Shown: positions 17,992 to 50,304, counted from the first letter of the stretch. The stretch: 64,000 nucleotides of DNA from Akkermansiaceae bacterium (GCA_031389115.1 JANMSI010000135.1:18758-82757), one strand, 5' to 3'. A program made the numbers and translations. Notes: generated by a model from the letters alone, not told the origin.

Positions 17992-18603
17992 ATGAAAAAA
18001 TTCATTTCAACAGTTGCCGTCATCGCCGCGCTGATCGTGCCGCTTTCCGCCGCCCCGACCGAGCCGGGCTTTGTTTCGTTGTTCGACGGGAAAACTTTGG
18101 ACGGCTGGAAGGTAAACGAAGCTCCCGAAGCTTTTTCCATCGAAGACGGAGCGATCAAGGCGAATGGCGACCGCTGCCATCTCTTCTACGATGGAAAGGT
18201 GAACGACGCGAAATTCAAGGACTTCGAGCTGCGGCTGGATGTAATGACCAAGAAGAACTCCAACGGCGGAGTTTTCATCCACACCGTATTCCAGAAAGAT
18301 GGCTGGCCTTCCGGCTACGAGGTCCAGGTTTGCAACAGCCAGGGCGATCCGCAGAAGTCGGGCGGACTCTATAACACCGTGAAAAACCTGGAACCCTTCG
18401 AGGACGACACTTGGATGAAGTATGTGATTTCGGTGAAGCGCGGCACGGTGAAGATCTCGGTAAACGGTAAGGAACTGGTGGACCACAAGCCTGAAGCCGG
18501 CGACAGCAAGCTTCTGCCAGACGGTGGGACGATCGCCTTCCAGGCGCACGACGGTGGCAGCACGACCCTTTACAAAAACATCCGGATCAAGGTTTTGAAG
18601 TAA
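17992..18603 (+). CDS. DUF1080 (3-keto-disaccharide hydrolase-like) exported protein (start moved to 17992)
   Basis: Signal peptide MKKFISTVAVIAALIVPLSA; LFDGKTLDGW, NSNGGVF, GYEVQ, IAFQAHD, YKNIRIK. Confidence 0.9.
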   Translation: MKKFISTVAVIAALIVPLSAAPTEPGFVSLFDGKTLDGWKVNEAPEAFSIEDGAIKANGDRCHLFYDGKVNDAKFKDFELRLDVMTKKNSNGGVFIHTVFQKDGWPSGYEVQVCNSQGDPQKSGGLYNTVKNLEPFEDDTWMKYVISVKRGTVKISVNGKELVDHKPEAGDSKLLPDGGTIAFQAHDGGSTTLYKNIRIKVLK

Positions 18604-48285: not shown

Positions 48286-50304
48286 ATGAACGCTGCCTCC
48301 CCCGACTCATCCCCCACGGGATTGCCGCTCCGTAAAATCTCATTGGTGAGGCGGCTTGGCTCTCGGTGGATGAGGCTGCATCTTTTGTGGAAAATCCTGA
48401 CCGTCGCCGCTGCGCTGTTGATTTTGGCAAGTCCGTTCTACGGCCCGGCGAGAAAGGTGCATCGGACTTGGAACTACGAGAACGATCTGGCGGCCGCGAA
48501 GCAGGCGCTCGCGGACGGGCGGTATGTCGAAGCGCGCGATCTTTCACTCGCCGTTCTGCGCGGCGATCCCGGGAAAATCGAGGCCCTGCCCATCTTCATG
48601 CGCGCGGCGGAGGAAATCGCCGATCCACGGCTGGTGGGAGTGGCGCGAGGTTATCTTTCGCTGAACAGCGACGACAAAACCGAGCGGGTGTTCGCATGGA
48701 AATCAATTTGCAGGCAAAGCCCGATGGGGATTGCCGGTAGCACGTGGATGTCGCTTCAAGACGACGAAAAGACCGATCCGGATTTCCTGGCACCTTGGCT
48801 GGAGCGCCTTGAAAATGAGAATTTAAGCGCGGAAGTGGCGACCATGCTTGCCGGGCAGGCTGAGCTCACCGACCCCCGCCTGGTGCGGATCCAGCTTTCA
48901 ATGCTGGCCAAGCGGGGCACGGAAGTCTCCTACCGCGATCTCCAAGCGCGCCTGCTGGAACGTCTCGCGTCGCACCCGGACGAGGGTCCGCTGCTGTTGG
49001 AGGCGATGGATGAAATTCCCCAAGCGGCTTTGATCCCCTACTTTTTCACCGCCTTGGGAGAGTGGCTCAAAGCCCGCGGCGGCGAGCCTTCGGTGGAGGA
49101 CCAGCTTCGGTTGGCGCGGTGTGAAATGGCGGCCCGCCCGGAGACCTCGGAGGCGGTGTTCAGCCGGATGATCGACAGATTGGGCGGCAGCGATCCGCTC
49201 CCGGTCGCCAGGTTTTGCGCCATCCTGAAGCGCTTCGGGAAAGTGGAGGAATTGTTGGAACCGCTCGTGGCGAAAGGGGATTCGGGTGCTTTCGACCTCA
49301 TGGCCGAAGTGCTGGAGCGTTTGGACAAGCTCGACAAATGGGACAAACTTCTGGAAACGCCGCCACGCGACGCCTTTCTACCCGGCATTCTGTGTGATCG
49401 GGCGTTCCTCGCATCAAACAGGGGTGATCAGAGAGCCCAGCCAAAGTTCGAGCAGGAGGCGATCGCCGCGGCGGTAGTGGGGATGAAGAACGACTCGCTG
49501 ATCCGCCTCGCCAGGCACGCGGACGACCGTGGCTTGCACACCTTCGCCACCGCAGTCTGGGTGAAAGCGATCCGCATGGGACCGTCCAGCCCGTTGCCGG
49601 CCTTCTCTTCGGTCAGTCATGTGGTCGAGTCGCTCGCCCATCACAAAAAAGAATCAGAACTTCTGGACGTCCTCACGGTCTATCACGCGTTGGAACCTGG
49701 AAATTTGGATGTGGTCACCCAATACCTGTATCTTGCCTGCTTGCATGGGAGCGTCACTCCGGCACGGGTTTTGGCGGACTTGTCGCCAATCAGGGAAAAA
49801 ATCCAGTCCCTCCCGCTGGATTGCACGGTCGCATTCGCCCACGTGCTGGAGGGCAACTACCCGGTTGCGGCGAAGCTCACCGGGAACCGCGAAGTCGATT
49901 GGTTTGCCCAAATTCCGGCGTTGCGGGCGATTCGGGCGATCGTCCTGGCCAAGACCGGCGGCCGCGAGGAGGCGGACGTCTATATGGACGGTTTTCCATG
50001 GGATGGTCTGCTGCCCAGCGAAATCCGGGTTTTCCGCGAACTTCTGGACGAGCCGGAGAAGGCCGGGGAACTGGATCCCGTGGCGAAAGCCGAGAAATTT
50101 GAAAAGGCAAGAACGGCGGAAGTCGCCAGGCAGGCGAACAAGGCCAAGGAAGCCAAAGCGGCGCGGGACGCCTTGGAGGTGGGTAAAACCGAGGAAACCA
50201 AGAAATTGGAAAAATTTGAGAGAGCGGAACACGCAAGGCGGGCGGAGCAAGCCCGGCAAGCGAAGAGAATCCAGGAAGCCGAAGCGGCAAAGGAAGCCAG
50301 GTGA
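48286..50304 (+). CDS. Membrane-anchored alpha-helical/TPR-like protein with a Lys/Glu/Ala-rich tail
   Basis: One N-terminal TM helix, helical repeats, C-terminal duplicated EKFE(K/R)A...ARQA unit. Confidence 0.7.
   Translation: MNAASPDSSPTGLPLRKISLVRRLGSRWMRLHLLWKILTVAAALLILASPFYGPARKVHRTWNYENDLAAAKQALADGRYVEARDLSLAVLRGDPGKIEALPIFMRAAEEIADPRLVGVARGYLSLNSDDKTERVFAWKSICRQSPMGIAGSTWMSLQDDEKTDPDFLAPWLERLENENLSAEVATMLAGQAELTDPRLVRIQLSMLAKRGTEVSYRDLQARLLERLASHPDEGPLLLEAMDEIPQAALIPYFFTALGEWLKARGGEPSVEDQLRLARCEMAARPETSEAVFSRMIDRLGGSDPLPVARFCAILKRFGKVEELLEPLVAKGDSGAFDLMAEVLERLDKLDKWDKLLETPPRDAFLPGILCDRAFLASNRGDQRAQPKFEQEAIAAAVVGMKNDSLIRLARHADDRGLHTFATAVWVKAIRMGPSSPLPAFSSVSHVVESLAHHKKESELLDVLTVYHALEPGNLDVVTQYLYLACLHGSVTPARVLADLSPIREKIQSLPLDCTVAFAHVLEGNYPVAAKLTGNREVDWFAQIPALRAIRAIVLAKTGGREEADVYMDGFPWDGLLPSEIRVFRELLDEPEKAGELDPVAKAEKFEKARTAEVARQANKAKEAKAARDALEVGKTEETKKLEKFERAEHARRAEQARQAKRIQEAEAAKEAR

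Follow-up and report, generated by a model that had tools for sequence, protein, structure and literature searches.

A two-partner secretion (TPS) locus induced by phosphate limitation, the Pdt locus, has been described in Pseudomonas aeruginosa. It comprises vreAIR, pdtB, exbB2, exbD2, a tonB homologue, PA0696, PA0697, PA0698 and the peptidyl-prolyl isomerase (PPIase) gene PA0699, with pdtA alongside; its promoters are PhoB- and sigma-VreI-dependent, and its pho boxes have been verified by electrophoretic mobility shift assay (PMC4971064, PMC2729926). The cassette within it, phdA-pdtB-exbB2-exbD2-tonB4-PA0696-PA0701 with pdtA, belongs to the PUMA3 (sigma-VreI) and PhoB regulons. PdtA, PA0696 and PA0698 rank with the most strongly induced proteins at phosphate limitation, and lapA and lapB adjoin pdtA (PMC9769906). 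Llamas et al. report that homologues of the TPS proteins, ExbBD and PA0696 travel together in several Proteobacteria (PMC2729926). A TPS exoprotein can also supply a TonB-dependent importer, as described for HxuA, HxuB and HxuC (PMC4873976). Here we analysed a 64-kb stretch of DNA from an Akkermansiaceae bacterium (GCA_031389115.1, JANMSI010000135.1:18758-82757), referred to below as the window, which holds an island of related genes at about 18.6 to 51.3 kb. We consider it fairly probable that this island is a layered composite built round a Pdt-type cassette and used for phosphorus uptake at low phosphate.

The core cassette and its PstS-fold companion

The core of the island consists of nine predicted genes (coordinates here and below are positions in the window; aa, amino acids).

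22407-24023, plus strand: tpsB, an Omp85-type exporter (POTRA_2 and ShlB domains)
24050-25948, plus strand: an ExbB fusion with a periplasmic extension (DUF2341, Laminin_G_3 (LamG) and MotA_ExbB domains)
25988-26398, plus strand: ExbD, by domain match
26413-26676, plus strand: an 87-aa membrane open reading frame (ORF) with TonB-like ends, from its translation
26676-27359, plus strand: TonB, with a proline-rich linker and a TonB_2 C-terminal domain
27375-29186, plus strand: a Porin_5 outer-membrane barrel (Porin_5, E 1.7e-194)
29188-29886, plus strand: a secreted coiled-coil protein of 232 aa, matching no Pfam family
29993-41326, plus strand: tpsA, 3777 aa, with a TPS domain, a long repeat body and DUF3739 near the C-terminus
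41323-42201, plus strand: a Sel1-repeat protein with a signal peptide, its start overlapping the tpsA stop

The tpsA start was placed at 29993, and the Sel1 gene is kept in most relatives. The 87-aa ORF has one transmembrane segment and a stop that overlaps the tonB start; the gene spacing in relatives is too tight to hold it, and it has the look of a partial duplication that arose locally.

The order TpsB, ExbB fusion, ExbD, TonB, Porin_5, coiled-coil protein and TpsA was found in all eight of the relatives' loci fetched, in five further metagenome or NCBI loci and in four genomes from other families of the class Verrucomicrobiae, with TpsB 40-74% identical across related loci. In a protein search of plasmids and chromids, Methylosinus, Burkholderia arboris, Variovorax and a Klebsiella plasmid gave the core, at identities of 37-47%. 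The bacterial control genomes, which include no Pseudomonas chromosome, gave no match to Porin_5, DUF2341 or DUF3739; DUF2341 was found in two methanogens only.

The clearest intermediate is plasmid pMSC49a of Methylosinus sp. C49 (NZ_AP022333.1, 42-84 kb), a locus that has been annotated only and not studied. Its order is STN protein, sigma factor, FecR, TpsB, ExbB fusion, ExbD, TonB, Porin_5, coiled-coil protein, PPIase, YbjN and TpsA, which matches the core in the window apart from the STN, sigma and FecR genes upstream and the PPIase and YbjN genes before tpsA. Identities to the window are 47% for TpsB, 46% for the ExbB fusion, 59% for ExbD and 42% for Porin_5, and the ExbB protein has the same DUF2341, LamG and MotA_ExbB architecture. 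The coiled-coil protein is 31-35% identical between loci, the Methylosinus post-porin gene giving 31% (E 1e-27). A PBP_like_2 gene adjoins the Methylosinus tpsA; the locus holds no P271, P425 or exosortase genes of the kind described below.

The window and the P. aeruginosa locus share the TPS pair, ExbB, ExbD, TonB, an outer-membrane protein with a signal peptide and a small secreted protein. The lap genes, which we take to be of the DING or PstS type, stand beside tpsA in P. aeruginosa, and the PstS-like gene P425 stands near tpsA in the window. The Pdt locus is induced by phosphate limitation through its pho boxes; in the window, predicted PhoB-type boxes directly precede tpsB and tpsA. Unlike the P. 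aeruginosa locus, the window lacks phdA, a PPIase gene and the Hxc type II system, and it adds the Sel1 protein, a PEP-CTERM protein lacking any PDB fold match and a PstS-like family unrelated in sequence to DING. VreI-, VreR- or VreA-type genes, extracytoplasmic function (ECF) sigma factor, FecR, STN receptor and type II secretion genes were all sought across the 64 kb and none was found, which agrees with the initial annotation as regards type II secretion. By published gene order and through proteobacterial intermediates, the core is predicted to be the Pdt-type cassette of P. aeruginosa. The parallel that the initial annotation had drawn with pdt, exbB2D2 and tonB4 is borne out by the homologous proteobacterial loci that bridge the two, and every gene that it had listed is present. 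Its claim of an undescribed system did not hold for the core, because the order matches the published P. aeruginosa locus through Methylosinus; the cassette is widespread and reported, with its function unexplained. Our literature search found no description of a verrucomicrobial version.

Three observations concern neighbouring genes in other carriers. In Luteolibacter flavescens (L032, JAPDDS010000004.1, 12083-13983), a locus that holds tpsA-sel1, P408, P271, P425 and P256, ECF sigma and FecR-like genes come right after P271-P425-P256, which recalls VreI/VreR. In B. arboris (L041, NZ_CP101525.1, 139-3325), a gene for a DING-like protein (GGGSSL ... YRSDSSGTS) and a GspF-like gene occur upstream of the tpsB-exbB-exbD-porin core, at a distance of about 14 kb, and mirror the lap/hxc neighbourhood of P. 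aeruginosa. G121, of the same family as the window's genome, carries DUF2341 with LamG twice (C2:345444-346664 and C24:132441-133637) in frames of 420-480 aa that have no ExbB channel domain; its P425 gene is on another contig, and it may hold a split or rearranged cassette.

Four further genes follow the core.

42318-43133, plus strand: P271, with a signal peptide, a 220-aa domain and a PEP-CTERM-type tail
43193-44407, plus strand: P425, a divergent PstS-fold protein, secreted, 404 aa
44486-45205, plus strand: P256, a 239-aa membrane-anchored protein of low complexity with a conserved 60-aa C-terminus and no family
45329-46555, plus strand: P408, a 408-aa paralogue of P271 with its own 150-aa C-terminal domain and no PEP-CTERM

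P425 has no Pfam match, and the PstS profile TIGR02136 gave it 20.7 bits (E 2e-4) against a cut-off of 206.6. Its AlphaFold2 model (mean predicted local distance difference test score, pLDDT, 84.6) was searched with Foldseek, and the top 22 PDB matches were all PstS (4lat, E 3.8e-12), with a target template modelling score (TM-score) of up to 0.81. P425 and PstS proteins have in common the two-lobe fold, the T-x-F loop, SGS, an Asp and the R-x-x-GSGT segment. The family retains TGATAFR, SGST, FSDVD and GRNNGSGTR; T52-F57, S116-S118, D166 and R239...S243-G244-T245 are invariant or at least 90% conserved in 51 family sequences, and the RxGSGTRAT segment aligns to 4exl and 4ecf. Going by the E. 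coli PstS residues, we take the retained segments to be phosphate contacts in PstS.

The distribution of P425 was determined across 201 evenly sampled Verrucomicrobiota genomes. The six with a P425 homologue are exactly the six that have the DUF2341-ExbB orthologue; with the query genome excluded, five of 200 coincide (chance about 4e-10), and P425 adjoins the cassette in four of these five. In Verrucomicrobiota, this predicted PstS-fold protein and the cassette go strictly together, as expected from the initial annotation, which had joined a PstS-type protein to the TPS/TonB cluster. PstS-family genes also stand beside the cassette elsewhere, namely PBP_like_2 in Methylosinus and the DING-like gene next to GspF-like in B. 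arboris. P425 itself was rejected as a DING protein (hhalign against the Burkholderia DING-like protein, probability 0.25%), no DING structure was among its top PDB matches, and neither the P425 profile nor the genome's own PstS retrieved the proteobacterial PBP genes. No pstCAB partner genes were found near P425, and P425 has no CTERM tail. Its C-terminus (44360-44407) carries an invariant R-x-GGDGGP-x-x-P that might be a docking or sorting signal.

A candidate Pho-box motif and the predicted transcription units

A motif, TGTGAC-N5-yGTsAC, that is, GTSAC half-sites 11 bp apart, precedes four transcription units of the island, including that of PstS-OmpA, a minus-strand gene treated in the next section.

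21186-21202: Pho box A, GGTGACAATTGTGTGAC, 47-63 bp upstream of the PstS-OmpA start
22336-22353: Pho box B, TGTGACGGGAACGTCACA, 54-71 bp upstream of tpsB
29888-29905: Pho box C, TGTGACACAATCGTCACT, 88-105 bp upstream of tpsA
45203-45272: Pho-box array, GTGAC half-sites at 45203, 45221, 45232 and 45243 plus GTCAC at 45268, 57-126 bp upstream of P408

The P408 array has four to five half-sites, three of them with 11-bp spacing. A fifth Pho box before P271 (42198) was rejected for its weak half-site and low matrix score. The window holds nine matches to a loose form of the motif against 3.1 expected, and two of 100 shuffles reached nine. The strict pattern occurs outside the island, in the 4.25-Mb genome, only before pstS-pstC, where a second box lies 100 bp off, and before a phoB/phoR-like pair, whose PhoB-like regulator is encoded at C171:57777-58460. 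A matrix trained on the pstS and phoB sites and on one relative's Na/Pi site only placed the tpsB, P408 and tpsA sites among the top-ranked of the genome and returned nothing before the exosortase gene.

The motif is also retained in relatives. It lies upstream of tpsB in six of them from three families (G014, G020, G008, G033, G027 and G036), and boxes occupy the equivalent P408 position in G008, L036, L037, G014 and L032, at P408 homologues or in the divergent P408/P271 spacer. In the close relative L033, the motif is directly upstream of a Na_Pi_cotrans/PhoU gene. The motif is predicted to be the Pho box of this organism because its sites mark the pstS and phoB-like promoters, an argument from position and not from count, and the predicted Pho control of the island is well supported by computation. 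The 11-bp-period motif that had first been noticed at four promoters is confirmed, conserved in relatives and credible as a Pho box.

Further high-scoring boxes were seen at C39:12948, C99:4212, C63:35362 and C10:2128. The genes behind them encode a CHAD-domain protein, a 1107-aa cadherin-like repeat protein and a 570-aa protein of no family, and the last site lies in a multicopper-oxidase-like/TPR spacer.

Two terminator regions delimit the units.

44430-44467, plus strand: intrinsic terminator with a 14-bp stem and a T run, closing the tpsA-sel1-P271-P425 unit
46583-46645, plus strand: a pair of terminator hairpins in tandem, separating P408 from the exosortase gene (fold -36 kcal/mol, z -3.3)

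The predicted units are tpsB to the coiled-coil gene, tpsA-sel1-P271-P425, and P408 alone. Since no terminator was found between tpsA and 44430, P271 and P425 are probably read from the tpsA promoter and co-transcribed with tpsA. Control appears to be direct through the Pho boxes, without a sigma/anti-sigma relay.

Predicted surface proteins, the exosortase operon and PstS-OmpA

The tail of P271, VPETSSS...RRRRNRA, has the P-E-x, the hydrophobic helix and the Arg cluster of a PEP-CTERM signal. The P271-type gene ends in such a signal in all 13 of the relatives' loci that have accessory genes (the window not counted). Tails of homologues are mostly PEPS, with PET, PEA and PEV in close relatives, and some family members match PF07589. 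The AlphaFold2 model of P271 (pLDDT 87.2) had no match in a fold search against the PDB (best E 0.03, TM-score 0.15). At E<=1e-10 the domain family comprises 754 clusters, and in some of these the domain forms the N-terminal part of far longer proteins. P271 and P408 are paralogues (47% identity over 252 aa), as had been claimed for two surface proteins, and the PEP-CTERM-type tail is found on P271 only. The 150-aa C-terminal domain of P408 (46100-46555; DxDxDG ... FLRATVTQ) is found again in this genome on at least four further proteins (C180, C44, C184 and C56), and a similar strand, ...LFGRLKVTQP, closes the long-form relatives; the domain may be a second one for sorting or anchoring.

The remaining genes of the island lie at its two ends.

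18587-21139, minus strand: PstS-OmpA, a PstS-PstS-OmpA_C protein, PBP_like_2 in two stretches plus OmpA_C, 850 aa from M43
Between PstS-OmpA and the plus-strand genes: a radical-SAM housekeeping gene (generic Radical_SAM domain match only), presumably RlmN-like
46663-47589, plus strand: exosortase (Exosortase_EpsH, PF09721, E 1.1e-29), about 308 aa from GTG 46663
47586-48284, plus strand: a 232-aa membrane protein, EpsI-like by position alone, no family
48286-50304, plus strand: a 672-aa helical protein of no family, with a paralogue adjoining the C145 exosortase
50301-51329, plus strand: an alpha/beta hydrolase (Hydrolase_4), which ends the exosortase unit and is not conserved in G014

The genes that flank the island are unrelated housekeeping genes. 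TIGR02136 gave PstS-OmpA 230 bits, which exceeds its cut-off, and the product is a predicted periplasmic phosphate binder attached to peptidoglycan. The gene reported at this place is real, with a start near 21139 instead of 21265; together with P425 it makes up the two PstS-fold genes originally noted, the former supported by profile and the latter by predicted structure. No orthologue of PstS-OmpA was found at E<=1e-40 in 40 relatives, and it was rejected as a conserved member of the island.

The exosortase ORF spans 46573-47589, GTG 46663, past the two terminators, being its most likely start. It carries the TIGR04178 signature (56 bits against a cut-off of 23); the named exosortase subtypes (XrtA, XrtC and others) in NCBIfam all scored far below their cut-offs. 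The EpsI models did not match the downstream 232-aa gene, which is co-conserved with the exosortase, and the 672-aa protein family accompanies both exosortase copies of the genome.

It had been proposed that the exosortase replaces type II secretion within one 32-kb island. In such a single system, the adjacent exosortase would be the dedicated, co-regulated sorter of the island's PEP-CTERM protein. All five exosortase orthologues with known context adjoin a P408-family gene (the window, L037, L036, G014 and G023:C50), and in G014 the exosortase is adjacent even though the cassette proteins are only about 30% identical. Moreover, this exosortase is the second of two in the genome: the other, on C145, lies beside glycosyltransferases, whereas the copy in the window is not beside polysaccharide genes. 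VPDSG-CTERM proteins do not track it. One such protein, of the four that the genome has, is encoded at 16792-17685 on the minus strand (PF18205, E 3.4e-7), and across relatives their presence follows neither of the tracked exosortase types; a role as VPDSG-CTERM sorter was rejected, with VPDSG present in G004, G020, G027, G033 and G037 in the absence of the exosortase and G014 showing the reverse.

Against a dedicated sorter, the exosortase operon is set apart from P408 by the two terminator hairpins, with no Pho box between. Exosortase orthologues (57-61% identity) occur in only two of the 40 relatives (G014 and G023), and no such orthologue was found nearby in L033, whose P425 is 80% identical, or in L035, G008, G020, G033, L. 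flavescens or the four class-level genomes. All ten cassette genomes tested have two to four exosortases elsewhere, and the genome itself encodes about 38 canonical PEP-CTERM proteins, which are scattered. The PET or PEP variant of the tail is independent of linkage: a PET tail as the mark of linked-exosortase substrates was rejected, G014 being linked with PEP and L035 unlinked with PET. P425 has no CTERM, so that for its export the exosortase cannot take the place of the Hxc type II system. Across relatives, the P271-type gene keeps its CTERM tail (13 of 13 loci); the exosortase operon is adjacent in only five of about 18 loci. We therefore hold the single-system reading to be unlikely, if still the best placed of the alternatives, and give a lineage-specific functional tie of the exosortase to the island the same low credence. 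The single 32-kb island did not stand, given a separate exosortase unit lacking a Pho box and a genome-specific PstS-OmpA gene. The exosortase operon is, as predicted from its distribution and terminators, a recent, separately transcribed addition confined to a sub-clade, and the island is best described as a composite of layers of different age because PstS-OmpA has no orthologue in 40 relatives and the exosortase has few.

Proposed working and rival readings

The composite that we favour would have three layers. The first (22407-42201) would be the verrucomicrobial Pdt-type cassette, from tpsB through Sel1. The second (42318-46555), conserved across the class Verrucomicrobiae, would consist of P271, P425, P256 and the unanchored P408 behind its own Pho-box array. 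The third would be formed by the recent PstS-OmpA gene, found only in this genome, and the second exosortase operon of the sub-clade. At low phosphate, phosphorylated PhoB would switch on the four units, and the TpsA fibre would be exported through TpsB. P271 would leave the cytoplasm through Sec, undergo exosortase processing and stay at the cell surface, and P425 would bind orthophosphate or a terminal phosphate group. The ExbB-ExbD-TonB motor would work Porin_5 through its conserved N-terminal strand and open an outer-membrane route for phosphorus compounds, with PstS-OmpA and the canonical PstSCAB acting downstream. The analysis itself shows the homology and synteny of the cassette, the layout of its operons, the PstS fold of P425 and its co-occurrence with the cassette, and where the motif sits and is conserved. 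Low-phosphate induction, the ligand, the surface location and the coupling of motor to porin are what we infer in this scheme.

The strand in question occupies residues 65-82 of Porin_5 (27567-27620), past the signal peptide and a variable proline-rich linker, and forms a strand-helix motif, S-x-N-[AV]-T-[VI]-N-L-[IL]-x-x-L-V-x-[KQR]-G-x-L-[TS]. In the alignment it is conserved across phyla, in Verrucomicrobia, Methylosinus, Klebsiella, Burkholderia and Variovorax. Its placement is like that of a TonB box, and it is a candidate for one on a barrel other than a classical TonB-dependent receptor. The nearest working analogy is the haem-haemopexin system Hxu of Haemophilus influenzae, in which a surface TPS exoprotein is combined with a TonB-energised importer for a scarce nutrient (PMC4873976). 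HxuC is a classical TonB-dependent receptor on the housekeeping TonB, whereas the window has Porin_5 and a private motor fused to a lectin-like domain. A bolder version, which we put forward as a long shot, is that Porin_5 is a new TonB-gated channel and that the Pdt cassette with its PstS-fold partner is a cross-phylum phosphorus import machine, not a virulence device. The partner would then be DING/Lap in Proteobacteria and the P425 family in Verrucomicrobia, with P271, as a PEP-CTERM protein of a new fold, holding P425 at the surface; possible substrates are polyphosphate, nucleic acid and other large phosphorylated compounds.

Several points weigh against the phosphorus-uptake composite. 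We know of no phosphate-uptake role reported for the P. aeruginosa locus, and the equivalence of our core with it is indirect. The cassette contains no classical TonB-dependent receptor, and a contact between TonB and Porin_5 is hypothetical. P425 has large insertions, being some 160 residues longer than PstS (425 against about 260 aa), and its TM-score on query length is 0.5. As to control, the response-regulator/kinase pair has PhoB and PnpS/PhoR as its best NCBIfam matches, each below the curated cut-off; chance alone should give the strict pattern about four times genome-wide, so that the argument rests on the position of the sites and not on their number; and the GTSAC half-site is nearly palindromic, so that orientation and PhoB binding are presumptive. 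Finally, in zebrafish, P. aeruginosa mutated singly in tpsA, tpsB, the tonB homologue or PA0696 showed no phenotype (PMC2729926).

The main rival to uptake is secretion: the motor with its lectin-like periplasmic domains, together with the stalked porin and the coiled-coil protein, would spend proton-motive force to drive, hold or release the TpsA fibre, and the PstS-like proteins would simply be co-regulated Pho neighbours. The motor genes always lie between tpsB and tpsA, which suits this reading, as does the missing TonB-dependent receptor; the DUF2341 and LamG domains of ExbB could bind a passing substrate, and in Proteobacteria the cassette also includes a PPIase gene and a chaperone-like gene of the YbjN type. 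TPS secretion has, however, been described as independent of an external energy source (PMC9355242). Secretion also leaves the one-to-one co-occurrence of the PstS-fold protein and its proteobacterial recurrence unexplained, and the motif conserved across phyla sits on the porin, not on TpsB. We regard this account as improbable, slightly more so than a dedicated exosortase.

Most TpsA proteins are adhesins or toxins, and the fibre could be an adhesin or competition factor deployed at phosphate exhaustion, on particles, against prey or in biofilm, with no direct part in uptake. PdtA has been reported as a virulence-associated TpsA (PMC5422565, PMC7035377), and another Pho-boxed gene of this genome encodes the cadherin-like repeat protein mentioned above. 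No toxin or contact-dependent inhibition (CDI)-type C-terminal domain was found in TpsA, however, and no immunity gene is present; the strict PstS-like partner, the private motor and the porin would also go unexplained, and we judge this reading distinctly unlikely. It is very improbable that the 11-bp motif is the site of a regulator other than PhoB, such as a CRP/FNR-type dimer (TGTGA-N8-TCACA): the tpsB, tpsA and phoB sites are indeed inverted repeats, TGTGAC-N6-GTCACA, but the spacer is 8 where CRP typically has 6, direct repeats of three to four half-sites at 11-bp spacing are seen at P408 and PstS-OmpA, which fits OmpR/PhoB-type regulators, and the genes that the motif precedes include pstS, the phoBR-like pair, a Na/Pi cotransporter and a CHAD gene.

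We return to the Pho-controlled composite for phosphorus uptake, in which the first observation of the island is confirmed and its interpretation partly supported. Since 2009 P. aeruginosa has been known to carry the Pdt-type cassette, whose genes are among the most strongly induced at phosphate limitation and whose private TonB motor is unexplained. What is new here is two unannotated protein families, the P425 binders and the P271 domain, the candidate TonB box of Porin_5 and a candidate Pho-box consensus, and the four additional Pho-boxed sites offer a first sketch of the predicted Pho regulon of this verrucomicrobial lineage. Nutrient acquisition is favoured over virulence because across the class the cassette has a one-to-one PstS-fold partner and a predicted surface-anchored one, because PstS/DING genes recur beside it in Alpha-, Beta- and Gammaproteobacteria, and because Porin_5 bears a strand resembling a TonB box. 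With concrete parts now named, the question of what the cassette does becomes more testable in environmental bacteria.

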